64,000 bases of DNA, taken from Planctomycetota bacterium (GTDB taxonomy: Bacteria; Planctomycetota; GCA-002687715). The notes below the pieces were generated by a model. That model made no database searches, had not been told where the DNA came from, and worked only from the letters and a program-made list of their open reading frames with translations. Within the stretch, counting starts at the first letter, position 1. Every line of letters starts with the position of its first letter. A program made the position numbers and the translations under genes. This document shows, one piece after another, positions 340 to 62,281 of the stretch. The stretch is taken from NCBI GenBank assembly GCA_002683135.1, contig NYSS01000182.1, forward strand, positions 14,005-78,004, read 5' to 3'.

Positions 340-431
340 GTATGTAGAATTAACTATGAATTGGGTGGTTTATGCCACCCGCCAGATGATAAAAGGCGCA
401 CCTCGGTCCAGTCAGGGGTAGGAAAACCACA
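322..431 (+). promoter_or_regulatory. class-B promoter + pseudoknot (PK) leader
   Basis: TCGACA 322-327, N17, TAGAAT 345-350, with dyad ATATCTATTAGGTAT in the spacer. PK S1 GGC 395-397/GTC 406-408; S2 ACCTC 400-404/GGGGT 415-419; then AGGA. 12 nt to ATG 432. Confidence 0.6.
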
Positions 432-767
432 ATGAAATTCAGACTTGTTCAACTAACTAATGAAATCGTCGTTGTTACAGAATGTGGCGGCGTAGCCACT
501 ATATCTCAACCAGAGCGCAGCAACGAAGATGACAATCGCACGGCTATCACCGATTACTTTTGTTTGCGTATTACCGATTTGAAAAACCCTACAAAAGATA
601 ACGTATGGGATTTACTTGCCGAAGGTAAAGCCCAATACAATGAGTGGACTCACCACAAGTTTAACGACATAGAACTTATCATTGATGCACTCAAGTGGCT
701 TTCCCCATGTGAAAAGCACTGGGAACTGGTAAGGGATTTGTTCACAGAAATTTTTCCTCAATCGTAA
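432..767 (+). CDS. hypothetical protein (111 aa)
   Basis: Track ORF; ATG lies 12 nt after the PK leader. Confidence 0.65.
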   Translation: MKFRLVQLTNEIVVVTECGGVATISQPERSNEDDNRTAITDYFCLRITDLKNPTKDNVWDLLAEGKAQYNEWTHHKFNDIELIIDALKWLSPCEKHWELVRDLFTEIFPQS

Positions 768-780
768 ACCATTTAATTTG

Positions 781-800
781 GAGAGGGATACACCCCTCTC
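781..800 (+). terminator. hairpin GAGAGGG-atacac-CCCTCTC (weak terminator or attenuator)
   Basis: 7-bp stem 14 nt after the stop of 432..767, with a poor T-run. The same GGGATACACCC core recurs at 60301-60315. Confidence 0.3.
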
Positions 801-815
801 TTATGGAAAGATAAA

Positions 816-1316
816 ATGTGCTCACTTCTTATTGATAACGCTTTTAGTACTAGCATGATGCGAAAAGGTGTTACGTTCTCAAGAACTACTTCTCGTAATG
901 ATGTGGTTGATTGCTATCGAAATCTTAATAGAACTGATTTATTTAGCATCAAGCAGAGAAAAGGTGAATTCAAAGGCCTGGTAACAGGGTACGCCAGAGC
1001 TATTCTGATTGCTGAACCATCGTTTCATGTAGGTAAGTCTGCAAATGCGCGTATTAAACAAACGCAATCTAAAGAAGTGCACGCCTATGTACGCGGAAGC
1101 TTTTTTGATGCATTCACAAAAGAGTTAGATACCACGACATTAAACCAACCTCTACTTGTCTCCTACAATCCTTATTTATGCGATAGCTTCTTTACACTTG
1201 AGAGAGATAAGTTTGGTAAGGTTATCAAAGAATCAATAGCGCCGATTGGAAACAGATCGCCCTATAATTACGCGTTAATACAAGGAAAAGACGTTCACCT
1301 TTTCAATAGCCTATAA
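816..1316 (+). CDS. hypothetical protein (166 aa)
   Basis: Track ORF with GGAAAG upstream of the ATG; no family recognised. Confidence 0.5.
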   Translation: MCSLLIDNAFSTSMMRKGVTFSRTTSRNDVVDCYRNLNRTDLFSIKQRKGEFKGLVTGYARAILIAEPSFHVGKSANARIKQTQSKEVHAYVRGSFFDAFTKELDTTTLNQPLLVSYNPYLCDSFFTLERDKFGKVIKESIAPIGNRSPYNYALIQGKDVHLFNSL

Positions 1317-1318
1317 CG

Positions 1319-1663
1319 TCAAAAGCTTAATACCCACTGTGGAGTACAGCCAGCCTCATAGATAGCTGAAAATTTGGTATCAATAAGGTATTGATCAGGC
1401 CTCAAGCTAAGTTTCCCAGACATAGAACAATTAACTTCTATTATCCTTACTTTGGGCTCATAGTCAGATTCATTACCCACAAGTGAAAGTACATTAGGCA
1501 ATTCATATTCACTTGGCCAAAATAATTCTTTTGGCATAAAGCCTTCAAAAAAATGGGCAATATTCTCTTTGGATTCTGATTGATCATTCTCAACGACCAT
1601 CGAGATCGTTTTTTCATTATTGTCTATATAAGTTAATACAATTTCAATGAATTTAGGCGTCAT
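1319..1663 (-). CDS. hypothetical protein (114 aa)
   Basis: Track ORF, convergent with 816..1316. Confidence 0.5.
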   Translation of the reverse strand: MTPKFIEIVLTYIDNNEKTISMVVENDQSESKENIAHFFEGFMPKELFWPSEYELPNVLSLVGNESDYEPKVRIIEVNCSMSGKLSLRPDQYLIDTKFSAIYEAGCTPQWVLSF

Positions 1664-1775
1664 GATTTAGGTCTTGGGTTAGCATTAATGCACAAAGATG
1701 AATTCATATGCAAAATATAGCTTCTACTTTTTCAATTTTCTAGAAAGAATAATTATTAGGACTGGATAAAATCAC

Positions 1776-1945
1776 TTGACTATACCTATTGGGTATGTAT
1801 GATAAATGTAAATCGGGTAACTCCAAGTACCCTTTAATGATTATGGCGTGCAGGGCATCATACCACCAGCACAGTGTTTTTTGATTAATCATTTAGCGAT
1901 TATTAGATAACGATGCGCCTCGGTCTATCAGGGGCAGGAAAGACC
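1776..1945 (+). promoter_or_regulatory. class-B promoter + long leader ending in PK
   Basis: TTGACT 1776-1781, N16 (ATACCTATTGGGTATG), TATGAT 1798-1803. PK S2 GCCTC 1917-1921/GGGGC 1931-1935. 10 nt to ATG 1946. Confidence 0.55.
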
Positions 1946-2212
1946 ATGACAAATTTAATAATGATTAAATCACTTTTTAAAAAAGCGGATGCAATCTCAA
2001 TCGACGATGCTTTTATCTCTTACCTGGATGCTAGAGATACAGAGGCTGGTGGGATTGAAATCATCCATGAAGATGATCGCTTTGAATTTACTAAATCCCA
2101 TTTAGATGGTGCCATCCATGATAAAGATTTTAATGTTTGGACATTATTCGATTCTAACGAAAGCAAATATATAAGGGTGTCATTTTTTCTAGTAACACCG
2201 CTAAAAATATAA
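1946..2212 (+). CDS. hypothetical protein (88 aa)
   Basis: Start moved from track 1913 (which lies inside the leader) to ATG 1946, 10 nt after the PK. Confidence 0.6.
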   Translation: MTNLIMIKSLFKKADAISIDDAFISYLDARDTEAGGIEIIHEDDRFEFTKSHLDGAIHDKDFNVWTLFDSNESKYIRVSFFLVTPLKI

Positions 2213-2219
2213 AAACTTA

Positions 2220-2297
2220 TTGACATTCGTGCGCACAAATATTAATATTGATAACAGTTACAGCGCACCTCGGCTTAGTCAGGGGTAGGAAAAGACC
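2220..2297 (+). promoter_or_regulatory. class-A promoter/operator + PK leader
   Basis: TTGACA 2220-2225, GTGCGCAC 2229-2236, TAATAT 2243-2248. PK S1 AGC 2262-2264/GCT 2273-2275; S2 ACCTC 2267-2271/GGGGT 2282-2286. 11 nt to ATG. Confidence 0.8.
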
Positions 2298-2840
2298 ATG
2301 GATTTTGAAACACTCACAAAGCTACTTGAAACCGGCAAAGAAACAGTTGCAGTTCGTCTTATCAATGATTTTAGTGTGCACAACGAATTTGCGCATATTA
2401 CTCTGCAGGTGGTTCATGTTGCTAAAACCGGCAATTACGATACTTTTGGTTTCTACGATAACTATTACGGCCAAAAGCACCAATATCGCGGCCTGAAATT
2501 GACCTGCCAAATGGATTGGCGTCAAAATAAAACCTATGGCTTTCATATTGGAATATCACCAAAGACTGACCTTATTTCATTAGAAGAAGCTGAAACATCT
2601 CTCAAAGTCCTTCGAACCATTAATCGTAAAATGTTAAAGATGATTCATAACGAAGGCCATACTGATGATTTCAGTGAGTATGCCATGCGTTTTTGTCGTG
2701 CAATTAATGCAAAAGCGTTTTATCACAACATTGATGGTAATAGAGCCCAATCTATAAACCACAATATCGGTTTACTACGTTCTGAGCTTGATATCGCAAT
2801 TAAAACCAACTTGGCAACCTGGGCCTCAAGAGCGGCTTAG
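2298..2840 (+). CDS. hypothetical protein (180 aa)
   Basis: Track ORF directly after an A-module. Confidence 0.7.
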   Translation: MDFETLTKLLETGKETVAVRLINDFSVHNEFAHITLQVVHVAKTGNYDTFGFYDNYYGQKHQYRGLKLTCQMDWRQNKTYGFHIGISPKTDLISLEEAETSLKVLRTINRKMLKMIHNEGHTDDFSEYAMRFCRAINAKAFYHNIDGNRAQSINHNIGLLRSELDIAIKTNLATWASRAA

Positions 2841-3104: not shown

Positions 3105-3182
3105 TTGACATTCGTGCGCACAGATATTAATATGACTATTAATTAAGGCGCACCTCGGTCCATTCAGGGGTAGGAAATACAA
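3105..3182 (+). promoter_or_regulatory. class-A promoter/operator + PK leader
   Basis: TTGACA 3105-3110, GTGCGCAC 3114-3121, TAATAT 3128-3133. S2 ACCTC 3152-3156/GGGGT 3167-3171. Confidence 0.8.
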
Positions 3183-3722
3183 ATGCAAAACATACATTCT
3201 ACAGCTTTACAAACAGCCATCATGCCAATCCTATCGAGTTCGCGTGCTTTGAATAATTTAAAAGTACTGATGTCTTCTTTGAATATTGAATCAGCCGTCA
3301 TAGAAAAAGGTGACTTTGGCGCTAAAATCACAAATCTTAAGGTTAAAGATGACTTTGACGTTACGTGTAAAGCAAATGTGCTAGCATTCGTGAGTATTGC
3401 TAATCAATATCTCGCGCACTACATGCCTAGCCCATTGTGGGCCTCGAAAGTAAAAGCATCGGGTGGTAAAAAGAAGCAGAATATCTCCGACTTTTTAAAT
3501 GATATCAAAGCGTGTGAAGATTTCATGAGTGCACTTAATCGCTATATAGACGCAGATCTCCTCATGATTTATTTTGAATATACAGGCCTAGATAACTCCC
3601 TACCGCTACCAGGTATTGTCGAGACATGTTTTATTAATATACCGATTAGTGCTTTATGGGATGCCTGCAATGATATTAAGACCAACATCATTCCAAAAGC
3701 GAGACACCTGGCCGCGCAGTAA
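3183..3722 (+). CDS. hypothetical protein (179 aa)
   Basis: Track ORF; ATG lies 11 nt after the PK. Confidence 0.7.
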   Translation: MQNIHSTALQTAIMPILSSSRALNNLKVLMSSLNIESAVIEKGDFGAKITNLKVKDDFDVTCKANVLAFVSIANQYLAHYMPSPLWASKVKASGGKKKQNISDFLNDIKACEDFMSALNRYIDADLLMIYFEYTGLDNSLPLPGIVETCFINIPISALWDACNDIKTNIIPKARHLAAQ

Positions 3723-5260: not shown

Positions 5261-6082
5261 CTAAGCAGCGAGTTCGTCAAACGTCTCAAAGAACTTACTT
5301 TCCAGTTCACTAAACTCGATCACCTGGTAGTCATCTGTATAGCGTTCTACATTATCGTGAAGATAAGTACTAATGAAATCAGAAAACCCATTGTCTAAAC
5401 CAAATTTGAATTGGTCCGTTCTCCATTTATTACCATTGGTATCAACAATACGTTGTCCATTTCCATCACTAATAAATTTTTCAGCTGTCACGACATCTCC
5501 GTAAACAGGGGAGTATGCATTTTCAACATCATTTCTTAACCACGGACGAAACTTTGTACCCGGTCTAATACGAACAAATACTGAATTTTCCAGCCTGCCT
5601 GAAGGTGTTTTTCCGAAGAAAAAGATATCTAAATAGTTCGGTTCAAGTGCCTTTAAAGCGCTCGCTAAGAAGCCACGTTGGGAGCCAATACCGGCGCCTG
5701 CTGGTGGAACTGTTAATTCAATCAAAGCATTGTCTTCATTAATCATTGACGTCAATGCGTTTAAATACAATTTCGGCAAACATGTAATTATTCTTGTAGG
5801 GTTAAGTTTTCTAATTAATGCGTTTGCCTTACGCGCATTGCTCTTGATAAAACCTTCCATTGCATCCTTTTCTAACTTCTGTTCATAGGGCTCAATCATT
5901 TCATTAGCGTGAATTAATCCGTACTTAGCAGATAGGATCGCCAAATCATAATCAATACCAACGGATGCCGTAGATTTTGACAATAAAGGAAGGTATCCCT
6001 TTCCTTGATAGAGATTAATCGCTCTGGCAGGAACAGAAAGTTTTTCTTGGGAACAAGGCAATATGATAAGTGGTTTTTGCAT
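5261..6082 (-). CDS. hypothetical protein (273 aa)
   Basis: Track ORF; ATG lies 11 nt after a minus-strand PK leader. N-terminal ILPCSQEK motif; family not confidently recognised. Confidence 0.7.
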   Translation of the reverse strand: MQKPLIILPCSQEKLSVPARAINLYQGKGYLPLLSKSTASVGIDYDLAILSAKYGLIHANEMIEPYEQKLEKDAMEGFIKSNARKANALIRKLNPTRIITCLPKLYLNALTSMINEDNALIELTVPPAGAGIGSQRGFLASALKALEPNYLDIFFFGKTPSGRLENSVFVRIRPGTKFRPWLRNDVENAYSPVYGDVVTAEKFISDGNGQRIVDTNGNKWRTDQFKFGLDNGFSDFISTYLHDNVERYTDDYQVIEFSELESKFFETFDELAA

Positions 6083-6157
6083 TTGTATTTCCTACCCCTG
6101 AAATGCCGAGGTGCACAATAATGATAACAATATTATTTATGTGCGCACGAATGTCAA
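6083..6157 (-). promoter_or_regulatory. class-A promoter/operator + PK leader (minus strand)
   Basis: Plus-strand coordinates: TGTCAA 6152-6157 (= -35 TTGACA), GTGCGCAC 6141-6148. PK S1 6115-6117/6104-6106 (UGU:GCA); S2 GAGGT 6108-6112/ACCCC 6094-6098. Confidence 0.8.
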
Positions 6158-6200: not shown

Positions 6201-6277
6201 TTACTTCTGTGCGCACATATATTAGTATTAATAAAAGTTAAGACGCGCCTCGGTCAGTCAGGGGTAGGAAAGAAACC
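6201..6277 (+). promoter_or_regulatory. class-A promoter/operator + PK leader (divergent partner of 6083-6157)
   Basis: TTACTT 6201-6206, GTGCGCAC 6209-6216, TAGTAT 6223-6228. S2 GCCTC 6247-6251/GGGGT 6261-6265 (G.U closing pair). Confidence 0.8.
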
Positions 6278-6877
6278 ATGCCACACGCTATCATCGCAAA
6301 TGAAAATTACGCAGTCATCGACGTTAAACTCGCTATCGCTGAAACCAACGGTGACAATATCGCAGACGGCTTAAATGAACTATTTCGCGAGCATTTAGAC
6401 AAAGACTTCATCGTCGATTACATGTTCAGTAATACCGACGAACCTTGCATAAAAACATCATCAAGAGAGCCATCTGAAGGCGAACTCTTTGAAGAAATTC
6501 GATTTGGTTGCCGAGAGTTAAAAACACTAAGCGCGGCTGTGCACTTCTTTCATTCAGAACTTGCTTGTCATGACTTCGAGGACCTTCCAATCGGCATGAT
6601 TGTAGATACCGCTTCATTAACAATCATGACCAACAAATTTTGGAATCTAGGTAGGGCGCTACATGACATTAGCCGGTTTGCAGATCAATCTGATGCACAA
6701 ACAACACCGTCTCTTTCGCAGGAAGAAAAAACAACGATGAAATACACAATCAATCATTTCATAAATTCAATTGATTCTGAAAGCAAGACGACACTGACGG
6801 ATGGCGATAACGATGTGATCCTCAATAAAGCTGCTCTAGAACAACTGAAGGCCAAACTTCAAATATTGTGTAACTAA
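6278..6877 (+). CDS. acidic hypothetical protein (199 aa)
   Basis: Track ORF; ATG lies 12 nt after the PK. Confidence 0.7.
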   Translation: MPHAIIANENYAVIDVKLAIAETNGDNIADGLNELFREHLDKDFIVDYMFSNTDEPCIKTSSREPSEGELFEEIRFGCRELKTLSAAVHFFHSELACHDFEDLPIGMIVDTASLTIMTNKFWNLGRALHDISRFADQSDAQTTPSLSQEEKTTMKYTINHFINSIDSESKTTLTDGDNDVILNKAALEQLKAKLQILCN

Positions 6878-6886: not shown

Positions 6887-6920
6887 GACGCGCCTCGGTC
6901 ATCAGGGGCAGGTTTTTATC
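6887..6920 (+). promoter_or_regulatory. PK leader only (intercistronic)
   Basis: GAC 6887-6889; S2 GCCTC 6892-6896/GGGGC 6905-6909. No promoter hexamers. 11 nt to ATG 6921. Confidence 0.7.
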
Positions 6921-7397
6921 ATGCAATCTAGTGCAATCATAATAAAGCCAATGACGGAAACAGAGAACCTGTTAGCCAACCTTTCGTTAGTAATAGAGCT
7001 CAACCAAAAAGTGAGCATGAGTGATTTAAACTTCACTGCTGTTTTCATTAAAAATGGTGATAGATTTTATCCGTTGGCAATAGACCCTAATACGTTGTCA
7101 TCAAGAAAAATAAAAGGAGGCCGTTATCAATTCCTCTGCAAGTTTTCTTACCAAATGGATGAAGTAAGAAGCTTCTTTCAAATCTTCTTTAGTGGGAATT
7201 TCCACTTTGTTCTAGATTCATCAATCTTAAACAGTATTGATTCAACAGCCTACATCAACATTGTTGGTTATGAACATAACACCAAAGTAGATGAGGCTTT
7301 AGGTGATATATACCTTACACTGGACGATACTAGCGAATACATGTCTCTAAATTCACTTGAACATCACGTAAACGTGGTGAACGACAAAACCCTTTAA
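6921..7397 (+). CDS. hypothetical protein (158 aa)
   Basis: Start moved from track 6885 (inside the leader) to ATG 6921. Confidence 0.65.
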   Translation: MQSSAIIIKPMTETENLLANLSLVIELNQKVSMSDLNFTAVFIKNGDRFYPLAIDPNTLSSRKIKGGRYQFLCKFSYQMDEVRSFFQIFFSGNFHFVLDSSILNSIDSTAYINIVGYEHNTKVDEALGDIYLTLDDTSEYMSLNSLEHHVNVVNDKTL

Positions 7398-10259: not shown

Positions 10260-11666
10260 TTACCCCCAAGGAATGTTAAGTCTATCCATGTCGGCTTTAT
10301 TAATTTGCGTTGTGCCGTTGATCGTTCTCATTACTGCTTGTGCTTCGTCACTTGATAGAAATTCGACAAGTGCTTTTCCTTCGACTTCCGACAGTGGCTC
10401 GCCCATTTTATGAATGTACTGTACGTGATTTTCTAAAGCCACTACATCGTCATCTATAGTTGCCCTAGACAACCAGGCTGGCATTAAGCGTTTAGGTTCA
10501 TCGCCATCATTACTAGAAATTCTTTTCAATACTACGTAACCACCTGACGTCGGTAAACTAAGTCTATTCTTACTGTTTGTTTCTAAAAATCGAGGTTTCT
10601 TTTTCTCGCCCCAGGTCCAGTTTCCGGCATTATCAAAGTCAGAAGAATAAACAATTTTTGTTGTAAGGTGACCACTTTGTCGATGTAGCTCAAGTTTACC
10701 CGTACTCAATCTGTATCCGGCATCAGGAAATGTCCTATTGCGCTTCTGATTTTTGAGGTAAAGATGGATATCTTTCACTGTCCTTGGTAGCGACCAATGT
10801 GATTCGTTTAGAATATCTGCTGAAGGCAGCACTAAATCGTATTCAGGCTTAGAGTCTGGATCTTTTGCCACCGTGATACGAATGCGGCCAACCTGCTTAC
10901 GTTTACGTGCATAGAAGAGGATATTTTCTTGTAAAACGTTTTTGAAGCACGAACGAGATTTGTATAGTGTAATGTGTTCAATACTAAGATTTTCCATCAG
11001 AAATTTACGGAAATCCTTAAAATAAGCGCCTGAACAAAAGCTGCGGGGTAACACCGCAAGTAAATGCCCATCATCAGCAACCCATTTAGCGGCTAGCACC
11101 ATAAATGCTGAGTACAAATTGGGTGACGATATACCATGTTTCTTTAGCAATAAAGAAAGAGGTTCTTTACTGCTTAGTTTATTGTAGGGTGGGTTAGTGG
11201 TAATAAAATCCGGTTTCGAAAGCCCGTCAATCTCCCCACGCTCTAATAAACTCTTTGCATGTACCGTGAAATCACTTTGTATTTCGTAGTCAGAATTTGA
11301 TTCTGCTTGAGATGAGAAGAACGACCAAGCTCTACTTAAATCATCATGCAATCTTTGATCTGTTTCAAAGCCGTATATGGAAAAATGTTTCGATAAATTT
11401 TGGTTTTGAAGTCTGCTCGCAAGAGCGGCTGATAGAATACCTGTCCCGGCACCTGGGTCACCTATAACTGATTTTGCTGAAACATTTGGAGAAGACATTA
11501 CAGATAATTGGACTGCCATCGACAATGGCGTGAAATGTTGCCCTCTCAATTTCTTTTCTACAGGGCTCGTTGCATTTCTCCAATAATCACTATTGGAATC
11601 TATTCTTGCTAAGAGTTCAGAGTATTCATCTTTACAGACGCTATTACTGACAAGGTTGTATTTCAC
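10260..11666 (-). CDS. N6-adenine DNA methyltransferase (Eco57I/N6_Mtase-like), orphan
   Basis: Motif I GDPGAGTGIL, motif IV TTNPPY. GTG start 11 nt after the PK leader. No adjacent nuclease. Confidence 0.8.
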   Translation of the reverse strand: MKYNLVSNSVCKDEYSELLARIDSNSDYWRNATSPVEKKLRGQHFTPLSMAVQLSVMSSPNVSAKSVIGDPGAGTGILSAALASRLQNQNLSKHFSIYGFETDQRLHDDLSRAWSFFSSQAESNSDYEIQSDFTVHAKSLLERGEIDGLSKPDFITTNPPYNKLSSKEPLSLLLKKHGISSPNLYSAFMVLAAKWVADDGHLLAVLPRSFCSGAYFKDFRKFLMENLSIEHITLYKSRSCFKNVLQENILFYARKRKQVGRIRITVAKDPDSKPEYDLVLPSADILNESHWSLPRTVKDIHLYLKNQKRNRTFPDAGYRLSTGKLELHRQSGHLTTKIVYSSDFDNAGNWTWGEKKKPRFLETNSKNRLSLPTSGGYVVLKRISSNDGDEPKRLMPAWLSRATIDDDVVALENHVQYIHKMGEPLSEVEGKALVEFLSSDEAQAVMRTINGTTQINKADMDRLNIPWG

Positions 11667-11749
11667 TGTATTTTCCTACCCCTGACTGGACCGAGGTGCA
11701 TCGATATAAAACTATATTACTACTTTTTATTTGTGCGCACAAATTTAAT
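11667..11749 (-). promoter_or_regulatory. class-A promoter/operator + PK leader (minus strand)
   Basis: GTGCGCAC 11733-11740; ATATTA 11714-11719 (= -10 TAATAT). S2 GAGGT 11693-11697/ACCCC 11678-11682. Weak -35. Confidence 0.7.
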
Positions 11750-46230: not shown

Positions 46231-46371
46231 AAGTTGCTCCCAATGAAGGGTATCACCATCAATCGAGATTAATTTAATACGGATTTTTCGGTAGTTGATA
46301 GTTTCACCAACAACGGGTTGTGTTCCCCATGTTTGAATATACGAAGAGCGTTGCTGAGTTCTTTTAAACAT
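46222..46371 (-). CDS. small hypothetical protein (49 aa), absent from ORF track
   Basis: ATG 46371 lies 11 nt after the PK leader of an A-module. Confidence 0.55.
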   Translation of the reverse strand: MFKRTQQRSSYIQTWGTQPVVGETINYRKIRIKLISIDGDTLHWEQLPW

Positions 46372-46450
46372 AATTAACTCCAACCCCTGAATGGTGACCG
46401 AGGTGCATCGTTGATGTGCTTATAATAATTTACGTGCGCACGAAAAGCAA
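46372..46450 (-). promoter_or_regulatory. class-A promoter/operator + PK leader (minus strand)
   Basis: AAGCAA 46445-46450 (= TTGCTT), GTGCGCAC 46434-46441. S2 GAGGT 46400-46404/ACCCC 46383-46387. Confidence 0.8.
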
Positions 46451-48241: not shown

Positions 48242-48703
48242 TTAGTTAACTTTTTTATGTTGAGTCCATGCTTTCAATTCAATGATGTTCGGGACGCTTT
48301 TGCAGTGCATTTCTTCCATAGTTGAGTATAAATCGAGTAGATTTAAAGACTGATATTTAAAGTATTTCCCTTTGGGCAATTCAGATATAAAATCAAAATA
48401 AACCCCGTCGTACTCAAACCAGCAATGTTCGACAATTTGTTCAGGTTTATCTATGATCTGATGCAGCCCTATACACAGTTTAAGTTCCGGTTCCTCATTG
48501 ATATTTTTAAGCAGTGTATTTACGACATTATCATAACATTTATTAGCCTGGTACTTGGCCGTATCAAATGAACTCTGCTCGACATCTATTACGGTGATCG
48601 GCGTAAATAAATTTACTGGCAACGATGTCATTACCGGCGCATTAAGTTGCTTTAAAACAAACTGAAAAGTAAACACATCCATTTTTTTGTCTGTAGTAGC
48701 CAT
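48242..48703 (-). CDS. hypothetical protein (153 aa) with Cys...His-x-Trp...Asp pattern
   Basis: ATG lies 12 nt after the PK; NKCYDNVV...VEHCWFEYDGVYFDF. Confidence 0.65.
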   Translation of the reverse strand: MATTDKKMDVFTFQFVLKQLNAPVMTSLPVNLFTPITVIDVEQSSFDTAKYQANKCYDNVVNTLLKNINEEPELKLCIGLHQIIDKPEQIVEHCWFEYDGVYFDFISELPKGKYFKYQSLNLLDLYSTMEEMHCKSVPNIIELKAWTQHKKVN

Positions 48704-48786
48704 ATGTTTTATCCAACCCCTGATAGTGTGACCGAGGTGCGTCGTAGGTATGTACTAACATTATTATTTGTGCGCACAAATATCAA
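48704..48786 (-). promoter_or_regulatory. class-A promoter/operator + PK leader (minus strand)
   Basis: TATCAA 48781-48786 (= TTGATA), GTGCGCAC 48770-48777. S2 GAGGT 48734-48738/ACCCC 48716-48720. Confidence 0.8.
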
Positions 48787-49353: not shown

Positions 49354-49752
49354 TTATGCGCGTTGATATTCGACGTAAATCATGAAACTTCCGTTATCCA
49401 ACGGGGTAGGCAATACACCATAACCAGATACAATACAACCGTTTAATAACTTGTATTCACCATTAACAAGTGACTGATAGGTTTTGCTTTGCATAGCTCT
49501 TGATTCACTACTAAAGCCTTTACCGGATGATGCTACATGTATTTGTGACACTTTATTGCAAACGTTTAATACGTTATACATTTCACGCATAAGCCATTGC
49601 GATGCCACCTGCTTGGGGTTTTTATAGCCGCGGCCAACAATACTGCTTGGTTTTGTCTGACCATTCATCATGCGGTCATAATCGTCTTTAAACGCAATGA
49701 ACTTTGGATCGTCTTTGGTAATGATTGATTGCTTAACTGTTTGCATTGTCAT
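49354..49752 (-). CDS. hypothetical protein (132 aa)
   Basis: Start moved from track 49788 (inside the leader) to ATG 49752, 11 nt after the PK. Confidence 0.65.
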   Translation of the reverse strand: MTMQTVKQSIITKDDPKFIAFKDDYDRMMNGQTKPSSIVGRGYKNPKQVASQWLMREMYNVLNVCNKVSQIHVASSGKGFSSESRAMQSKTYQSLVNGEYKLLNGCIVSGYGVLPTPLDNGSFMIYVEYQRA

Positions 49753-49852
49753 GAAAATATCCAACCCCTGAAAATGGTCGAGGTGCACCGTGTTTGTTTA
49801 TTCGTTGTATCCAACTTAATAGTAATTATACATACCTATTAGATATGGTCAA
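49753..49852 (-). promoter_or_regulatory. class-B promoter + PK leader (minus strand)
   Basis: Minus-strand reading: TTGACC-N16 (ATATCTAATAGGTATG)-TATAAT (plus 49847-49852, 49831-49846, 49825-49830). PK S1 49787-49789/49776-49778 (GGU:ACC); S2 GAGGT 49780-49784/ACCCC 49764-49768. Confidence 0.7.
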
Positions 49853-51637: not shown

Positions 51638-51717
51638 TTGACAACTGTGCGCACGGAATATATTATCTTTAAAAGACTTTGATGCACCTCGGTCACCACT
51701 CAGGGGTAGGAAAAACC
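51638..51717 (+). promoter_or_regulatory. class-A promoter/operator + PK leader
   Basis: TTGACA 51638-51643, GTGCGCAC 51647-51654, TATTAT 51661-51666. S2 ACCTC 51686-51690/GGGGT 51703-51707. Confidence 0.8.
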
Positions 51718-52257
51718 ATGACAACCACCATCAAAACTAAAACTGAAATCAGACAAATCATCGATCTGGTATTACACGATGATGCGAACAAAAATTCAAA
51801 CTGGTCAGAAATGCTTGCTAGTGCCTTCATCGCAAAACAGCATCGTTTATTATCTGAATACCTTTCTCATGGAAAAGGTTTCAACGATGGTTCAAAAAAG
51901 GCTTTTTGCCAGCTTCTTAACACCGACACTGTTTTAACGAAGAAAGGGATAGACATCCTTATAGCTCAGCATTGTCAAATCGAACTTGAACAGCTTCTCA
52001 ACGAAAGAAAACAGGAAGAAATCGAGTTCACATTGAGTCATGTAAAAGAAAAAGTTCTTGATAAGTTTGAAAATGGTATTGAAGCAATGGCATGGGTTGA
52101 CTCGCTTGTTGAAAAAGGATTCAACAAAATAGTCAAGCAGAACAAAAAGAGTTATTTAGTTAACGATGAAGGTAATGGATATAACCTTAAAAGAGCACTC
52201 GTTAGAGAATACGCAGAAGCCTTGCTTGCTTTCTCTAATATAAAAAAAGCAGCGTAA
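51718..52257 (+). CDS. hypothetical protein (179 aa)
   Basis: Start moved from track 51679 to ATG 51718, 10 nt after the PK. Confidence 0.65.
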   Translation: MTTTIKTKTEIRQIIDLVLHDDANKNSNWSEMLASAFIAKQHRLLSEYLSHGKGFNDGSKKAFCQLLNTDTVLTKKGIDILIAQHCQIELEQLLNERKQEEIEFTLSHVKEKVLDKFENGIEAMAWVDSLVEKGFNKIVKQNKKSYLVNDEGNGYNLKRALVREYAEALLAFSNIKKAA

Positions 52258-52336: not shown

Positions 52337-52373
52337 GATGCGCCTCGATCACTTCTCAGGGGCAGGAATAAAG
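52337..52373 (+). promoter_or_regulatory. PK leader only
   Basis: PK S1 GAT 52337-52339/ATC 52348-52350; S2 GCCTC 52342-52346/GGGGC 52359-52363. 10 nt to ATG 52374. Confidence 0.65.
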
Positions 52374-53041
52374 ATGAATAACACTGCACTTTCATTACCA
52401 TCGCATAGCAAACTACCCGCTCGCTTTGCAAATATGCTATCGACCCCATCAGATTCAAAAGTTGAACAATTGTGGTGGCAGTTCAGAGGTCAAGAAGAGT
52501 CTCTGAACAAGACCCACGAGATGATAAATAGCCCCAGCACCAAACTATCCATTTCTCTATTGCTCAGAAGTTCACTAAAAGATCTCAATGAGCCAATTAA
52601 TTGTTCATTATTTGGGTCGTCGTTAGAAAATGCGAAAAAATTCTTCAACAGCAGTATTGGGAGAAGGCTATAGATTTAACTGATGTTAAATTTCACATGC
52701 CTAATAACAGACGTATTGAGTGGAGGGAAAACGTAAAAGCCTTTAATTTCCCTGATTTCACCCTAGAGAACCTTTTTTCTACGTTATCAACCTTACTGTT
52801 AGAGCGCGACAAATTCATAGCAGAGCGGGTGGAGGGCGTATTTAATGCGTTATCGAAGTCTCACGTTACTAATACCCCAGAAGGTTTCTATAAAAGGATG
52901 ATCATTAGTGATATTCATAGAGATGGTTTTCCTTGTTCGACACGTTGCGGTTACATCAACGATCTTCGAATTGTAGTCGGACGGTTCTTAGGACGTGAAA
53001 ATGATAATGTGGTGAGTTCCTATGATCTCTTAATCGTTTAA
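52374..53041 (+). pseudogene. N-terminal (DUF4942-like) part of a methyltransferase gene, interrupted by a frameshift
   Basis: Reading ...SSLENAKK switches to ILQQQYWEKAIDL... only if one A is added to run A6 52635-52640. Track ORFs 52338..52673 and 52601..53041 overlap by 73 nt. Confidence 0.5.
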
Positions 53042-56436: not shown

Positions 56437-56517
56437 TTTACTTTTGTGCGCACGAATAATATAATGAACACATCTCAAGACGCGCCTCGGTCACCATTCA
56501 GGGGTTGGAAATTAGTT
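56437..56517 (+). promoter_or_regulatory. class-A promoter/operator + PK leader
   Basis: TTTACT 56437-56442, GTGCGCAC 56446-56453, TATAAT 56460-56465. S2 GCCTC 56484-56488/GGGGT 56501-56505. Confidence 0.8.
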
Positions 56518-56784
56518 ATGCAAATTTTTGCCAAATATCACACTGAATTTGAAAACCAAAATATCACATCATTTGTGGGCATTGATGCCGACAGTTGCAC
56601 CATCGTAGAGTCACAAGAAATCAATGACGCCGAAGTAAGTTCCGACAGAGGGGAGCATTTATCTGATTACGTGGAAGTTGAGCATCATGGCGAGTATTTT
56701 ATCTTTGAATGTGAAGCGGGTGATTTAACACACGTAGGCGGTAAAGAATTTGAAAATTTCCTTCGTGAGACACTCTTAAAATAA
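56518..56784 (+). CDS. acidic hypothetical protein (88 aa)
   Basis: Start moved from track 56407 to ATG 56518, 12 nt after the PK. Confidence 0.65.
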   Translation: MQIFAKYHTEFENQNITSFVGIDADSCTIVESQEINDAEVSSDRGEHLSDYVEVEHHGEYFIFECEAGDLTHVGGKEFENFLRETLLK

Positions 56785-57207: not shown

Positions 57208-57288
57208 TTGATATTTGTGCGCACGAATAATATGATAAATACATCTCAAGACGCACCTCGGTCATACCATCAGGGGTTGGAATTAACC
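57208..57288 (+). promoter_or_regulatory. class-A promoter/operator + PK leader
   Basis: TTGATA 57208-57213, GTGCGCAC 57217-57224, TATGAT 57231-57236. S2 ACCTC 57255-57259/GGGGT 57273-57277. Confidence 0.8.
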
Positions 57289-57666
57289 ATGAACATCGTT
57301 ACCACATTCTACTGCATCGCTCGATACTTCCTTGGGTTATACGTACCTTTTATCATTGCCGCTGATCTACCGCAGGCACTAGCCGATTTAGTAGGCTTAC
57401 CCGCCTTGGTCGGAGAAGTATTGAGTAATGTTTCTCACATTGCGCTATTCATCTTCGCCTATAACGTCAGCAGACAGCCAAAGTATGTCGCAGCTATCGG
57501 TGCAACCTATACTATTGCTAACATAGCCACCGTTTTTCAATCAGCTATTGCAACGTTCATTTTCAATGTAAGCTTCACGTCTTGCCTTTTACTATTATCT
57601 GCAAAATTCTATGTAGCACGTCATCAAATCGCTGCAGAAGTATTTGAACGTATGAGTAGGACGTAA
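57289..57666 (+). CDS. membrane protein (125 aa)
   Basis: Start moved from track 57208 to ATG 57289; hydrophobic throughout. Confidence 0.65.
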   Translation: MNIVTTFYCIARYFLGLYVPFIIAADLPQALADLVGLPALVGEVLSNVSHIALFIFAYNVSRQPKYVAAIGATYTIANIATVFQSAIATFIFNVSFTSCLLLLSAKFYVARHQIAAEVFERMSRT

Positions 57667-57685
57667 GCGCCACTTAATCTTAAAT

Positions 57686-57720
57686 GACGCGCCTCGGTCT
57701 TTCTGGGGCAGGATAACGAT
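57686..57720 (+). promoter_or_regulatory. PK leader only (intercistronic)
   Basis: GAC 57686-57688; S2 GCCTC 57691-57695/GGGGC 57705-57709. 11 nt to the ATG. Confidence 0.7.
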
Positions 57721-58086
57721 ATGCACGCAACCAAGACCAACGAACTTGAAATGTTACTTAGACAACTTTTAGGCATAAAGACACGATATTTCTTCACATG
57801 GACAGGAGATCAAAAAACTTACCGGCTTTTGTTTTCAAATGGTGAAGTTCACAAAGACGTAACTCAAGACATGCTTCTTGATGCAGCTAAAGCACTAGGG
57901 GCGCCTAAAGAAGCGCTTACCAGTGGAATCAAACGATTCCATTTCCCACTCTATGAGCTTTATCACCGTAAGGCATTGCAGAATGTAAAAGAAGAAAGTG
58001 ACTGCTTCCGGTGCAGTGATTGTGGCTATGAGTGGAGTATGGCGGCAGGCGATAATGAGGTGCCAGTTCGTTGCACGCATGATTAA
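57721..58086 (+). CDS. hypothetical protein with C-terminal zinc-ribbon-like CxxC..C motif (121 aa)
   Basis: Track ORF after a PK leader; CFRCSDCGYEW...RCTH. Confidence 0.65.
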   Translation: MHATKTNELEMLLRQLLGIKTRYFFTWTGDQKTYRLLFSNGEVHKDVTQDMLLDAAKALGAPKEALTSGIKRFHFPLYELYHRKALQNVKEESDCFRCSDCGYEWSMAAGDNEVPVRCTHD

Positions 58087-59827: not shown

Positions 59828-59908
59828 TTTACTTTTGTGCGCACATAAAATAATATAAACACATAGCAAAGACGCACCTCGGTCACCATTCAGGGGTAGG
59901 AAAAAACA
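59828..59908 (+). promoter_or_regulatory. class-A promoter/operator + PK leader
   Basis: TTTACT 59828-59833, GTGCGCAC 59837-59844, TAATAT 59851-59856. S2 ACCTC 59876-59880/GGGGT 59893-59897. Confidence 0.8.
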
Positions 59909-60286
59909 ATGTCAAATAAACTAAATACCACGCAAAAAATCGCTTCTGATGTAGTTTCTACGTTTATCGCTCGTGCCGATGAGTCATCAGACGTCAATCA
60001 GCTTGCTTTCGATAGCATCATCAAAGAAACCCTTACCACAGTTGGTTTTGGTCAATGCTTTGAACAATTGCTTGTAAGAAAGAATTTTCAATTGAAAGCT
60101 ATCCTAGATGTGTTTTCTAAAGCATCTAGGGAATGCGTCTTTGATACCTATGCCGACAATGACGACGCTATCGAGCAATCAGTAGATATCAGCCTAACTG
60201 ATACAGTCATGGGCATTGCACTGTCACGCTCTCGATTGATGCAGCGATTAATTATCGAAGCCGAAGACACTGCGCTGAATCTCTAA
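59909..60286 (+). CDS. hypothetical protein (125 aa)
   Basis: Track ORF after an A-module. Confidence 0.7.
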   Translation: MSNKLNTTQKIASDVVSTFIARADESSDVNQLAFDSIIKETLTTVGFGQCFEQLLVRKNFQLKAILDVFSKASRECVFDTYADNDDAIEQSVDISLTDTVMGIALSRSRLMQRLIIEAEDTALNL

Positions 60287-60326
60287 GACAGCACTATTGG
60301 AAGGGATACACCCTTATTGATTTGAA

Positions 60327-60361
60327 GACGCGCCTCGGTCATTCAGGGGCTGGTAAATACA
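60327..60361 (+). promoter_or_regulatory. PK leader only (intercistronic)
   Basis: GAC 60327-60329; S2 GCCTC 60332-60336/GGGGC 60346-60350. Preceded by hairpin AAGGG-ataca-CCCTT at 60301-60315. Confidence 0.7.
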
Positions 60362-60658
60362 ATGAAAAATGCAACTACGGCAGCAAAGCTACCTCGAATT
60401 AATGTTACTCACTTTATTGCTGGTGGTATTTCAGAAATCTTTGAATCAGAAGTGCTAGTCGATAACGAAGACCGTTTAGAAGTAGTAACAACGCAATCAA
60501 GTATTCTTTCTGAGCAGAATAAACAAATCATTTCTGACTATGTTCGCAGCTGCCAGGGAGAGGACGAGGACACCAACGAAGAGCTGGCAGAATTTTTTAA
60601 CGGGCTAGACAAAGACTGCAGCATTCCTACGCTTTTTTATTGGGATTCAGAAGCGTAA
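60362..60658 (+). CDS. acidic hypothetical protein (98 aa)
   Basis: Track ORF after a PK leader. Confidence 0.7.
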   Translation: MKNATTAAKLPRINVTHFIAGGISEIFESEVLVDNEDRLEVVTTQSSILSEQNKQIISDYVRSCQGEDEDTNEELAEFFNGLDKDCSIPTLFYWDSEA

Positions 60659-60689
60659 ATTTTTTAATATCCTCAAGGAAACCCATCAT

Positions 60690-60947
60690 ATGACGCTAGA
60701 ACATTTATCAGCAATGCCACCTGAACAGGTAATGCAGTGGATTAAGGCTCATAAAGGAAGCTTTACGTTAGTACCAAATGTACCGAGTCATGAATTTTTG
60801 AGTACCTTTATTTTGCATATGCCTGCAGCAATGGATCAAACGACAGCTGATGCAGTGGCTAAACAATACTGCGAATATCATGAAGAAGTTATAGAGTCCA
60901 CTAAACAGCACTTTTCATGTGTTGATGAATCTATTGAGTCTAATTAA
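60690..60947 (+). CDS. hypothetical protein (85 aa)
   Basis: Track ORF with AAGGAA RBS. Confidence 0.55.
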   Translation: MTLEHLSAMPPEQVMQWIKAHKGSFTLVPNVPSHEFLSTFILHMPAAMDQTTADAVAKQYCEYHEEVIESTKQHFSCVDESIESN

Positions 60948-60973
60948 TAAATAACACTTACTTAGGGAGCCTT

Positions 60974-61192
60974 ATGAATAAAAGTACAAAAGCGGCCTTG
61001 CTAGTATATGCCACACCATTTTTGGCTATTTTCGGCTTAGAACTGCTCATGTTTTTTTATGTAAAGCCTATGGTACTGGAAAAAGTGCCTTCTGCTGGCA
61101 ATTTATGGCAGTTCCATGTTCTCGGTATAGCTATCATAATTGGTCTTTGGTATCCCATTAGAAAGTGGATATATAAAGATTTGATGAAATAA
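60974..61192 (+). CDS. small membrane protein (72 aa)
   Basis: Two hydrophobic segments; GGGAG RBS. Confidence 0.55.
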   Translation: MNKSTKAALLVYATPFLAIFGLELLMFFYVKPMVLEKVPSAGNLWQFHVLGIAIIIGLWYPIRKWIYKDLMK

Positions 61193-61220
61193 CAATATTA
61201 AGCCGACAGGAGAATGTTCT

Positions 61221-61424
61221 ATGGCTAACAAAATCAGACCTTTTGGCATTTACAACATTAATCCTGCGAGTATTTCGCCTTCAGGGTATGATGTTGCGGA
61301 TTGCCAAGATCTGCTTCCAAAAGGAGAGCGGATCAGAAACAAGAAGTTAAAGCGCCGTAGACATAATAAAATGGCGCGTGTTGCAGCTAAGCAGGCTTTA
61401 TATAAAGAACTGATAGTGGCTTAA
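61221..61424 (+). CDS. small basic protein (67 aa)
   Basis: KKLKRRRHNKMARVAAK; AGGAG RBS. Confidence 0.5.
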   Translation: MANKIRPFGIYNINPASISPSGYDVADCQDLLPKGERIRNKKLKRRRHNKMARVAAKQALYKELIVA

Positions 61425-61444
61425 CTCTTAGTGAGGAATTCAAA

Positions 61445-61603
61445 ATGATTAAAGAATTATTGGAAATAATTGAGGCACAGCGAGAGTATATTGACGCCTT
61501 GCCTGAATCAGTGGTTTCGACGTTACCAGTTATGCCCGGTCACGATAGAGATTGGGCTGACGAGGTAATTTATGCTGCTAAGAAGTCCTTGGACGACAAA
61601 TAA
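61445..61603 (+). CDS. small protein (52 aa), absent from ORF track; paralog of C-terminus of 39267..39635
   Basis: ATG 61445 with GAGGA RBS; about 70 percent identical by eye to residues 72-121 of the 122-aa protein. Confidence 0.6.
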   Translation: MIKELLEIIEAQREYIDALPESVVSTLPVMPGHDRDWADEVIYAAKKSLDDK

Positions 61604-61736
61604 CCGGTCATTAATCAGTATATCATTCGGGTATAAAAATACGGCAACCTTCACAATAGGTTTTACTTTAGTTCCATAGATATCGTGAACTAGTGATAAA
61701 AATTACGAAAAAAGTGGTGAAAGAGATAAATAAATG

Positions 61737-61818
61737 TTGATTTCTGTGCGCACACACAGTAATATAAACACATAGCAAAGACGCACCTCGGTCACCATTC
61801 AGGGGTAGGACATTAACC
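61737..61818 (+). promoter_or_regulatory. class-A promoter/operator + PK leader
   Basis: TTGATT 61737-61742, GTGCGCAC 61746-61753, TAATAT 61760-61765. S2 ACCTC 61785-61789/GGGGT 61802-61806. Confidence 0.8.
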
Positions 61819-62232
61819 ATGAATATTCAGTCATCGAATACACAGAACTTCGACCTTCGTAACTACTACCTTTTCATTAAAATTGCCCAGGATGACTTTA
61901 ACGGCGAACTTAACCTATCTCACGTTGAGCTGAAAAACGGCAACACCAGCCAGCCGTTAGAAATTAATTCGGTAATAGGCATGAAGTATGACGCTAATCA
62001 GTACACGTTGATCTGCAAATTTGATGATGAACATGCAGACTATTGTGATTCACCCGAAGCATTACGTCGTATCTTTGAAGCAATCCATTCTTCTACAAGC
62101 GATGCCTACATTGATTTGACTGCTGATGTTGATTCACTCGATGTAGACGCTACATTAAATAACATCATTGAAATTCAATTATATTCAGACTCTGACCTCA
62201 AGTTTTCAAAATCAGTCGCAATCGTCCATTAA
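61819..62232 (+). CDS. hypothetical protein (137 aa)
   Basis: Track ORF after an A-module. Confidence 0.7.
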   Translation: MNIQSSNTQNFDLRNYYLFIKIAQDDFNGELNLSHVELKNGNTSQPLEINSVIGMKYDANQYTLICKFDDEHADYCDSPEALRRIFEAIHSSTSDAYIDLTADVDSLDVDATLNNIIEIQLYSDSDLKFSKSVAIVH

Positions 62233-62244
62233 TTTGTAATCATT

Positions 62245-62281
62245 GACGCGCCTCGGTCTTTCAGGGGCAGGATAAACCAAC
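62245..62281 (+). promoter_or_regulatory. PK leader only (intercistronic)
   Basis: GAC 62245-62247; S2 GCCTC 62250-62254/GGGGC 62264-62268. 13 nt to the ATG. Confidence 0.7.

Follow-up and report, generated by a model that had tools for sequence, protein, structure and literature searches.

The leader element and its setting

The stretch of DNA analysed here, 64,000 nucleotides (nt) long and referred to as the window, covers C182:14005-78004 of a 209-contig assembly filed under Planctomycetota, and carries 31 copies of a short leader element, on which a regular-expression scan and a covariance-model scan agree; the start of an open reading frame (ORF) lies 3' of the leader in all 31 cases. 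The subject of the present work is helix S2 of this leader, which the first-pass annotation had proposed to be an internal mimic of the pairing between a Shine-Dalgarno (SD) sequence and the anti-SD of 16S rRNA. The contig has a GC content of 39.6%, compared with ~66% in the large contigs of the assembly, many other small contigs of which lie at 30-53%. It is 97% identical over 8 kb to the Alteromonas macleodii plasmid pKD01 (336 kb) and 93% identical over 8 kb to the A. mediterranea plasmid MRG65-300 (302 kb), the latter of which has Dot/Icm-type transfer genes. From the GC contrast and these identities we take the bin to be mixed and the window to be, as judged from its sequence, a mis-binned fragment of an Alteromonas-type conjugative megaplasmid. 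Its gene content comprises several orphan DNA methylase genes, many small orphan ORFs and a type IV-A CRISPR-Cas locus. The genes downstream of the leaders are unrelated orphans and DNA methylases, and Pfam searches with ten leader-driven or nearby proteins gave no matches.

The leader consensus reads GAC GC [A/G]CCUC G GUC N4-9 (ending in UCA) GGGG[U/C] [A/U]GGA N6-9 AUG, where GAC and GUC are the strands of helix S1, and [A/G]CCUC and GGGG[U/C] the 5' and 3' arms of helix S2. Together with its flanking base the 5' arm of S2 reads CACCUC in 20 of the 31 window copies (65%), as had been stated for the majority form, CGCCUC in nine, and CACCCC and CUCCUC in one each. For the 3' arm, 24 copies have GGGGU and seven have GGGGC, and the four bases that follow it are AGGA (23 copies), UGGA (6), AGGU (1) or UGGU (1). 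The flanking C is the invariant second base of loop L1 and lies outside the helix; the A turns to G jointly with its partner. The spacer to the start codon is 6-9 nt; when the copies of four replicons are pooled, 82 of 98 have a spacer of 7-8 nt. The window contains 28 occurrences of the DNA hexamer CACCTC, of which 20 are leader arms, whereas shuffling predicts 14.7 +/- 3.9 (0/100 shuffles reach 28). The two coordinates given in the first-pass annotation, 400 and 62268, mark where the S2 5' arm of the first copy begins and where the S2 3' arm of the last copy ends. The copies are listed below, with S2 given as 5' arm / 3' arm, followed by the bases next to it and the start codon.

395..434, +, leader copy; S2 400-404 (CACCUC, flank plus arm) / 415-419 GGGGU; AGGA 420-423; ATG 432; TAGGTATGTAGAAT-type promoter, not GTGCGCAC
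1912..1948, +, leader copy, G-C allele; S2 1917-1921 GCCUC / 1931-1935 GGGGC; AGGA 1936-1939; ATG 1946; without GTGCGCAC promoter
2262..2300, +, leader copy; helix S1 AGC:GCU (compensatory); S2 2267-2271 / 2282-2286; AGGA 2287-2290; ATG 2298; GTGCGCAC promoter upstream
3147..3185, +, leader copy; S2 3152-3156 / 3167-3171; AGGA 3172-3175; ATG 3183; promoter-linked
6080..6117, -, leader copy, DUF6884 gene; helix S1 UGU:GCA; S2 6112-6108 / 6098-6094; AGGA 6093-6090; ATG 6082; promoter-linked
6242..6280, +, leader copy; S2 6247-6251 GCCUC / 6261-6265 GGGGU (G.U closing pair); AGGA 6266-6269; ATG 6278; promoter-linked
6887..6923, +, leader copy, intercistronic, 9 nt past upstream stop; S2 6892-6896 GCCUC / 6905-6909 GGGGC; AGGU 6910-6913; ATG 6921
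11664..11702, -, leader copy, N6 DNA methylase gene; S2 11697-11693 / 11682-11678; AGGA 11677-11674; GTG 11666
20183..20224, +, leader copy, 596-aa C5-methylase-like gene; S2 20188-20192 / 20205-20209; AGGA 20210-20213; ATG 20222
22076..22118, +, leader copy; S2 22081-22085 / 22099-22103; AGGA 22104-22107; ATG 22116
25937..25974, +, leader copy; S2 25942-25946 / 25956-25960; AGGA 25961-25964; ATG 25972
28748..28785, +, leader copy; S2 28753-28757 / 28767-28771; AGGA 28772-28775; ATG 28783
29055..29093, +, leader copy, intercistronic, U/U mismatch at S2 closing pair (CUCCUC); S2 29060-29064 / 29074-29078; AGGA 29079-29082; ATG 29091
31611..31648, +, leader copy, sole ACCCC (U.G to C-G); S2 31616-31620 / 31630-31634; AGGA 31635-31638; ATG 31646
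32483..32523, +, leader copy, 541-aa HATPase gene; S2 32488-32492 / 32504-32508; AGGA 32509-32512; ATG 32521
38227..38266, -, leader copy; S2 38261-38257 / 38245-38241; UGGA 38240-38237; ATG 38229
40231..40270, -, leader copy; S2 40265-40261 / 40250-40246; AGGA 40245-40242; real start GTG 40233, 8 nt past AGGA; ATG 40238 opens a 2-codon frame
42045..42083, -, leader copy; helix S1 GGC:GCU; S2 42078-42074 / 42063-42059; AGGA 42058-42055; ATG 42047
46157..46192, -, leader copy, intercistronic; helix S1 AGU:ACU; S2 46187-46183 GCCUC / 46174-46170 GGGGC; AGGA 46169-46166; ATG 46159
46369..46409, -, leader copy; S2 46404-46400 / 46387-46383; UGGA 46382-46379; ATG 46371
48701..48743, -, leader copy; S2 48738-48734 / 48720-48716; UGGA 48715-48712; ATG 48703
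49750..49789, -, leader copy; helix S1 GGU:ACC; S2 49784-49780 / 49768-49764; UGGA 49763-49760; ATG 49752; TAGGTATGTATAAT-type promoter
51681..51720, +, leader copy; S2 51686-51690 / 51703-51707; AGGA 51708-51711; ATG 51718
52337..52376, +, leader copy, intercistronic; helix S1 GAU:AUC; S2 52342-52346 GCCUC / 52359-52363 GGGGC; AGGA 52364-52367; ATG 52374
56479..56520, +, leader copy; S2 56484-56488 GCCUC / 56501-56505 GGGGU; UGGA 56506-56509; ATG 56518
57250..57291, +, leader copy; S2 57255-57259 / 57273-57277; UGGA 57278-57281; ATG 57289
57686..57723, +, leader copy, intercistronic; S2 57691-57695 GCCUC / 57705-57709 GGGGC; AGGA 57710-57713; ATG 57721
59871..59911, +, leader copy; S2 59876-59880 / 59893-59897; AGGA 59898-59901; ATG 59909
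60327..60364, +, leader copy, intercistronic; S2 60332-60336 GCCUC / 60346-60350 GGGGC; UGGU 60351-60354; ATG 60362
61780..61821, +, leader copy; S2 61785-61789 / 61802-61806; AGGA 61807-61810; ATG 61819
62245..62284, +, leader copy, intercistronic, 12 nt past upstream stop; S2 62250-62254 GCCUC / 62264-62268 GGGGC; AGGA 62269-62272; ATG 62282

The leader occurs both behind promoters and between cistrons. All 24 gene-driving GTGCGCAC promoters on the contig carry the S2 core downstream, and all 34 genuine upstream UUCG hairpins on the F-type plasmids described below likewise precede it, which argues that the core is not an artefact of the search pattern. Behind the GTGCGCAC promoters of the window the closing pair of S2 is A-U in 19 copies and G.U in two, with zero G-C; the G-C closing pair is present in seven window copies, all promoterless, and the 17 G-C copies of the pooled set are again all promoterless. 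The gap between the upstream stop codon and an intercistronic leader ranges from 9 to 80 nt (window 6887-62284), so that coupling to a terminating ribosome is possible for only some of the intercistronic copies.

Rfam 15 gave no match at gathering thresholds over the whole window and no leader match at E <=10 over positions 56400-62300, which contain eight copies, and literature searches for the arm sequences retrieved no paper with CACCTCGGTC or CACCUCGGUC. Neither Rfam nor the literature searched contains the leader family.

At window positions 330-360 (+) and 49810-49835 (-) the GTGCGCAC promoter is replaced by a common promoter-like box, CTA(T/A)TAGGTATGTA(G/T)AATTA, of the extended -10 type. 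The sole intergenic GTGCGCAC site on the contig without a leader downstream lies outside the window, 2.9 kb before its position 1, at C182:11122 (cf. L001:1523-1961). The ORF that follows it encodes 124 aa (MEDKSQFRE...), has its own GGGGUGGA SD and no Pfam match, and may specify an autoregulated repressor of the GTGCGCAC regulon.

Two crossing helices in the leader

Helices S1 and S2 were scored together as a pseudoknot, at first over 59 distinct leaders from the contig, pKD01, MRG65-300 and one Vibrio cholerae plasmid, and over a wider alignment of 123 copies (81 distinct) from nine replicons or contigs in five genera. In the first alignment 99.2% of cells pair, a fraction that drops to 49-62% when the partner is slid by one column, and in the wider one 98.8% of the cells of the 81 distinct sequences do so; 0/500 shuffles reach the observed paired fraction or covariation score. 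The two helices differ in how their pairing has been kept. Helix S1 (columns 1-3 with 13-15) has two-sided changes at all three pairs, the combinations seen being GAC:GUC, GAU:AUC, AGC:GCU, GGU:ACC, AGU:ACU, UGU:GCA and GGC:GCC. Helix S2 covaries at its closing pair only (A-U 61, G-C 14, G.U 5), and the inner CCUC:GGGG, including a U.G wobble, is constant in 80 of the 81 distinct sequences, the one exception being a U to C change.

The two helices cross, each with covariation support of its own, in the classical H-type order, and are thus compatible with one another rather than alternatives. The connecting loops, i.e. L1 of 2 nt over the 5-bp S2, L2 of 1 nt and L3 of 4-9 nt over the 3-bp helix S1, span distances that we judge feasible from general pseudoknot geometry. 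As far as comparative sequence evidence goes, S2 is a genuine helix that forms half of an H-type pseudoknot with helix S1. The constant U.G wobble of S2 and the G.U pairs of helix S1 are present on the sense strand only, and this, together with the fixed position of the copies 6-9 nt before ORF starts, fits a structure in mRNA. A palindrome in double-stranded DNA, or a protein operator, was considered and ruled out, in that pairs vary with complementarity kept and the G.U pairs are confined to the sense strand.

Neither arm of S2 has a conserved, mutually exclusive alternative partner in the 31 window copies. Pyrimidine 4-mers able to pair with GGGG are present in 13 of the 31, at scattered positions, and in the region from -12 to +40 no window copy contains another G[AG]GG (0/31, where ~6 would be expected; P ~0.001). 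With no conserved partner in cis for either arm, the sole consistent competitor for S2 would be one that acts in trans.

Relatives on other plasmids and the 16S rRNA tail

Loose sequence patterns gave chance matches in GC-rich genomes and a stricter pattern was therefore used for the scan of genome contigs. pKD01 has 37 leader copies, all but one of them inside 80 kb of its 336 kb, and MRG65-300 has 41. The leader is also carried by A. antoniana, A. salexigens, Rheinheimera sp. WS51 and M. vinifirmus, and by F-type conjugative plasmids of V. cholerae and V. alginolyticus, and a Bermanella plasmid gave a BLAST match to it. At least four upstream contexts were found, comprising the GTGCGCAC-operator promoter, an ATTGTACGTACAAT-operator promoter in A. 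antoniana, the TAGGTATGTA(G/T)AAT promoter and, on the F-type plasmids, two RNA hairpins; these contexts and the occurrence between cistrons together indicate that the leader is an autonomous module. The A. antoniana leaders (L254-L256) lie behind promoters with the palindrome ATTGTACGTACAAT, and the different boxes and palindromes upstream of the same leader imply that leader and operator are separable.

On the F-type plasmids (L250:8200-16100, L261 and L236; Rheinheimera, Vibrio) leaders of the type found in the window, here termed class I, are preceded by hairpins of the forms cAGGGUGGGC-UUCG-GCCUGGUACCUG and UGCGC-NNNN-GCGCA, the former with compensatory changes from GGGC:GCCU to GAGC:GCUU or GGAC:GUCU. 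A second type, class II, follows a GNRA-loop hairpin and a GUGACCAG/CUGGUCAC hairpin, and then a third segment, GGCCAG, that could re-pair. The longer leaders of the F-type plasmids may be true multi-state RNAs. A TGGTAC...GC element upstream on these plasmids was considered as a sigma-54 promoter and set aside on inspection only, its spacing being wrong.

Class II leaders read GGU GC ACCUC U ACC UAAA GGGGU, followed by 5-7 nt and AUG, and number 16 copies, on F-type plasmids of Vibrio, Rheinheimera and Marinobacter and not on the Alteromonas megaplasmids. In most of them there is no other purine run before the AUG, typical spacers being UAUAUG, UAAACG and UGAACG. Their starts coincide with those annotated independently by the Prokaryotic Genome Annotation Pipeline, i.e. 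a coding sequence at 827 and radC at 47695 in NZ_CP043555, and a coding sequence starting at 49592 in L261 (NZ_CP110672). An SD forming one strand of the helix is thus found in the 16 class II relatives and in none of the 31 class I copies of the window. In class II the 3' arm of S2 is the sole SD, so that S2 is there, literally, an internal SD:anti-SD helix. As the GGGGU of class II is the only SD and lies 5-7 nt from annotated starts, S2 is an SD:anti-SD helix by descent.

The plasmid backbones that carry the leader have little else in common. A tblastn comparison of all ORFs of two Vibrio F-type plasmids with the whole of MRG65-300 (302 kb) and with the contig gave just three shared proteins, TopA, a transglycosylase and, weakly, ParA; on this basis a common partner of the leader must be a host component, for which the ribosome is the obvious choice. 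A plasmid-encoded RNA-binding partner was rejected, none being common to both backbones in the same comparison.

The only 16S gene of the assembly (C68) derives from the 66% GC organism and not from the host of the plasmid, and the 16S sequences of A. salexigens and Marinobacter vinifirmus, both leader carriers, were used in its place. Their 3' end is GGATCACCTCCTTA, with a canonical anti-SD. The first-pass annotation had made the resemblance between leader and ribosome depend on a comparison with the host anti-SD, and that comparison leaves the resemblance in place. With its flanking C, the 5' arm of S2 matches the Alteromonas/Marinobacter 16S tail (GGAUCACCUCCUUA), the majority form CACCUC being identical to the host segment; the arm itself, ACCUC, is the 16S segment in ...GAUC-ACCUC-CUUA, and the other window copies mostly read GCCUC, including the GCCUC:GGGGC pairings. 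The 3' arm, which had been described as SD-like, is indeed so: GGGGU is one letter from GAGGU, of which ACCUC is the exact 16S pairing partner, and it is the arm that constitutes the sole SD in class II. Among the leaderless genes of pKD01 the SD is GAGG(U) in 15 cases, most of which read GAGGU, and AGGA in ten, at a median of 7 nt from the AUG. In class I the G-run is located 10-13 nt from the AUG, and the conserved GG(A) begins 0-1 nt past S2 and 7-8 nt from the AUG; on sequence spacing, the class I G-run thus appears too distant for the usual SD of the plasmid.

Predicted energies are compatible with a competition between S2 and the ribosome. With S2 closed, a 3-4-bp pairing of GGA with the anti-SD has a mean predicted energy of -4.7 kcal/mol at 25 C, and with S2 open a bulged GGGG/AGG duplex is predicted to reach -9.9 kcal/mol at the same temperature. 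The S2 hairpin alone is predicted at -6.2 kcal/mol (A-U allele) or -8.2 kcal/mol (G-C allele) at 25 C, its energy changing from -7.7 kcal/mol at 15 C to -4.5 kcal/mol at 37 C. Cis and trans pairing are therefore of similar strength, which makes the competition energetically plausible. RNA thermometers of the ROSE or fourU kind are not matched by class I, where both SD and AUG lie outside helices S1 and S2. As regards CsrA/RsmA sites, which have one GGA motif in a hairpin loop and one over the SD, class I leaders have AGGA or UGGA at the SD but their G-run is GGGG within a stem, and most class II copies are without any GGA; CsrA is thus an unlikely universal partner.

Proposed control of translation initiation by the leader

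Taken together, the conserved pairing, the relation of its strands to the SD and the 16S tail, and the class II architecture lead us to favor, at about even odds for and against, a reading in which S2 is an SD-masking helix in a mini-pseudoknot, the module as a whole acting in cis as a governor of initiation against the host ribosome. In class I, S2 most likely masks the upstream half of the GGGGYWGGA purine tract, and the helix most likely limits ribosome access; we infer that masking lowers or sets the rate of initiation. The structure is an H-type pseudoknot of 25-32 nt, with GAC:GUC as helix S1, GC as L1, G as L2 and an L3 of 4-9 nt ending in CA, S2 being the main stem, and it ends 0-1 nt before a GGA SD that is itself 7-8 nt from the start codon. 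The 3' strand of S2 corresponds to an SD of the GAGGU type and its 5' strand to the 16S pentamer with which such SDs pair. The 30S subunit would, in class I, meet a short, correctly spaced SD abutting the helix end, the upstream half of the tract being hidden, and a stronger, albeit mis-registered, 16S pairing would require S2 to melt. Such a governor would be self-contained, limiting and standardizing initiation for many unrelated plasmid genes.

Several observations weigh against masking as a full account of S2. The functional SD (GGA) is outside S2 in 31 of 31 window copies and, given that the class I SD is never inside the helix, S2 may have no effect on initiation or may even assist it, for example through stacking or by shielding the site from flanking sequence. 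The A of the 5' arm changes to G whenever its partner changes to C, which implies that it is pairing that has been selected and not 16S identity. Invariance equal to that of the S2 arms is found in loops L1 (GC) and L2 (G) and in the CA that ends L3, which suggests a specific tertiary fold, or a recognized surface or bound factor, and not SD mimicry alone. Changes of GGGG to GAGG or GGAG are never seen, though either would better both cis and 16S pairing, and a simple masking model does not predict either the frozen GGGG or the U.G wobble kept in 80 of 81 distinct sequences. Nested folding gives S2 a probability of only ~0.47 and the SD a predicted pairing of about one half; across the 31 leaders, the minimum-free-energy and partition results of this approach are noisy, alternating between helices S1 and S2, and are here given little weight because the model cannot represent pseudoknots.

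The proposal of the first-pass annotation that S2 is an internal SD:anti-SD mimic thus stands in part: the helix is real, its 5' arm is the 16S pentamer ACCUC and in class II its 3' arm is the SD, but in the window the SD lies outside S2 and CACCUC is lost from a third of the copies while pairing is kept. Its proposal that S2 competes with 16S pairing is energetically plausible, as the predicted energy of pairing with the 16S tail about doubles when S2 opens (-4.7 to -9.9 kcal/mol) and the S2 hairpin alone is of comparable size. A pure 16S mimic leaves the invariant loops unexplained. As to its suggestion of an on/off switch, the lack of a conserved alternative partner, the compatibility of helices S1 and S2, the position of the SD outside S2 and the invariance of the loops are such that a signal-responsive switch is for the present a hypothesis only.

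A constitutive structural module, which we consider rather unlikely, would use the same fold as a stabilizer of the 5' end, as a context insulator that keeps SD and AUG single-stranded regardless of the ORF downstream, or as a docking (standby) element for 30S and protein S1 that increases translation; S2 would then look like an SD:anti-SD helix only because its G-rich arm requires pyrimidines opposite it. Such a role is consistent with the SD lying outside S2 throughout the window, with the A-rich spacers, with the start of the pseudoknot ~10-13 nt from the inferred transcription start of promoter-linked copies, and with the use of one element behind at least four promoter/operator types as well as between cistrons. 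There is a documented precedent in the 5'-proximal pseudoknot of tisB +42 mRNA, which is needed for S1/30S standby binding, as proven by compensatory stem 2 mutations (Romilly et al. 2020, PMC7708055). The tisB pseudoknot likewise acts on 30S binding, but it is located ~100 nt from a sequestered ribosome-binding site (RBS) and activates translation, whereas the leader pseudoknot abuts the SD and has one SD-like strand. What a constitutive module leaves unexplained is that the sole SD of class II is inside S2, that the S2 arms are frozen, wobble included, while helix S1 covaries freely, and that the identity of the closing pair goes with location, being G-C in intercistronic copies and A-U in promoter-linked ones.

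Alternatively, the leader may be an operator for a trans-acting factor, be it a protein, a small RNA or a small molecule, that reads the loops and the U.G wobble and stabilizes or melts the pseudoknot, so that translation would be controlled across the plasmid in the manner of a riboswitch or repressor; this is the form that a true on/off switch would take. Invariance at ~15 of ~25 positions, including L1, L2 and the end of L3, recalls small pseudoknot aptamers, the 31-41 copies per plasmid are regulon-like and confined to one sector, and the pseudoknot is estimated from rough stacking sums to be only marginally stable. We nonetheless regard such an operator as improbable, there being no Rfam match either at gathering thresholds or at E <=10, no RNA-binding protein common to the unrelated backbones that carry the leader and no conserved alternative fold. 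In addition, CsrA needs a GGA that is missing from most class II copies, and the genes downstream, unrelated orphans and DNA methylases, do not resemble a metabolic regulon.

A further reading, which we consider improbable, is that the pseudoknot is a portable, cis-acting mimic of the 16S-tail:SD duplex placed before each of the establishment or anti-defence genes of conjugative plasmids of marine Gammaproteobacteria, whose translation would be gated by the ribosome pool of the recipient without a plasmid-encoded factor, for example by opening only when free 30S/S1 is abundant just after entry.

Maintenance at the DNA level, with promoter-leader cassettes serving as recombination substrates by which gene modules are shuffled or lost, and being homogenized by gene conversion among themselves, and with the RNA helix real but secondary, we judge to be very improbable, since gene conversion cannot give identical cores in plasmids of five genera without a common backbone and leaves the compensatory changes in helix S1 and the fixed distance to start codons unexplained, even though 17 of 54 homology-block ends (window versus pKD01 or MRG65-300) lie within 80 nt of a leader when the cassettes make up ~5% of the window, pKD01 has a hybrid copy with an A.C mismatch in S2 (L001:2010), IncC intergenic repeats serve Bet/Exo single-strand annealing repair (PMC7498323) and PeSL cassettes shuffle genes in T4-like phages (PMC4122927). 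A DNA-level role is in any case compatible with an RNA role, which it does not replace. Examples of block ends at cassettes are 11760, 20103, 22014, 25868, 29055, 31545, 48683, 51715 and 59905 (window versus L001 and L237/L238); such ends and the hybrid leader point to recombination within cassettes.

Among the closest known systems are the preQ1-I (RF00522) and SAM-II riboswitches, which are small H-type pseudoknots whose second helix takes in the SD. The leader resembles them in size (~30 nt), in topology, in having a pseudoknot strand that is or abuts the SD and in its highly invariant loops, but differs in being without an Rfam match or a biosynthetic or transport gene context, in occurring in dozens of copies per replicon and in that no ligand is indicated. 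Asano and Mizobuchi are said to have described an activator pseudoknot for the translation of repZ/repA in IncI-alpha (ColIb-P9), IncB and IncL/M plasmids. There too a pseudoknot in a plasmid mRNA, in which a hairpin loop pairs with the bases just 5' of the SD, decides the start of translation; however, the repZ pseudoknot is long-range, dependent on a leader peptide, antagonized by an antisense RNA and restricted to a single rep gene, none of which is apparent for the window leaders. A leader ORF for a peptide of the repZ type does not fit in the ~45-nt untranslated region.

In the IncC plasmid pVCR94, the leader of vcrx089 is predicted to sequester the RBS and rptI intergenic repeats are present in the host defence evasion (hde) operon (Roy et al. 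2020, NAR 48:8815, PMC7498323). Both systems have repeated intergenic elements in an establishment/anti-defence block of a conjugative plasmid from marine or enteric Gammaproteobacteria, a predicted mRNA structure that hides the RBS, and adjoining genes of orphan methylase and anti-restriction type. No sequence likeness was seen between them, however, and the IncC structure is a hairpin mentioned in passing for one gene, whereas the leader is an H-type pseudoknot supported by covariation, found before 31-41 genes per plasmid and, in the window, with its SD outside the helix. The PeSL promoter/stem-loop cassettes of T4-like phages (Arbiol 2010, PMC2839356; Comeau 2014, PMC4122927) are also short conserved regulatory cassettes that occur in dozens of copies before orphan genes in plastic regions, at indel and replacement junctions. 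The leader shares the location at junctions (17/54 block ends) and not the upstream terminator stem-loop; PeSLs combine a terminator with an early promoter, whereas the leader structure is 3' of the promoter in the 5' untranslated region, is tied to the SD and also occurs without a promoter.

Masking by an internal anti-SD is thus familiar, and small pseudoknots that take in or abut the SD are known from preQ1-I, SAM-II, the repZ activator and tisB standby. What is new is an uncatalogued leader family that unrelated backbones deploy in front of individual genes, at 31-41 copies per plasmid, and that comes in two natural architectures, one having the SD within the helix and the other immediately beyond it. 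The module has been kept across plasmids of at least five genera with almost no common proteins. If the helix sets or gates initiation, it would add a plasmid-wide post-transcriptional layer to a block of orphan DNA methylase and likely establishment genes, atop a shared operator; if the gate reading is true, the leader would be a new class of multi-copy, host-independent translational gate. The two natural architectures provide a ready comparison for how the 30S subunit reads helix-adjacent SDs, and the module could act as a compact, host-independent insulator or governor in synthetic constructs.

Two further features of the region do not involve the leader directly. The CRISPR array of the type IV-A locus has a 60-bp period and is located beside csf5-csf1-csf2-csf3, with csf4/dinG divergent (window 13769-14142 and 14239-20104); there are no leader copies upstream of the csf gene starts checked in a sister plasmid, and none at window 11702-20183. 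In pKD01 a group II intron reverse transcriptase gene (ltrA; L001:38427-39698) lies in a segment that is unaligned with the window at ~36650-39700, and this segment is an insertion difference between the sister plasmids.

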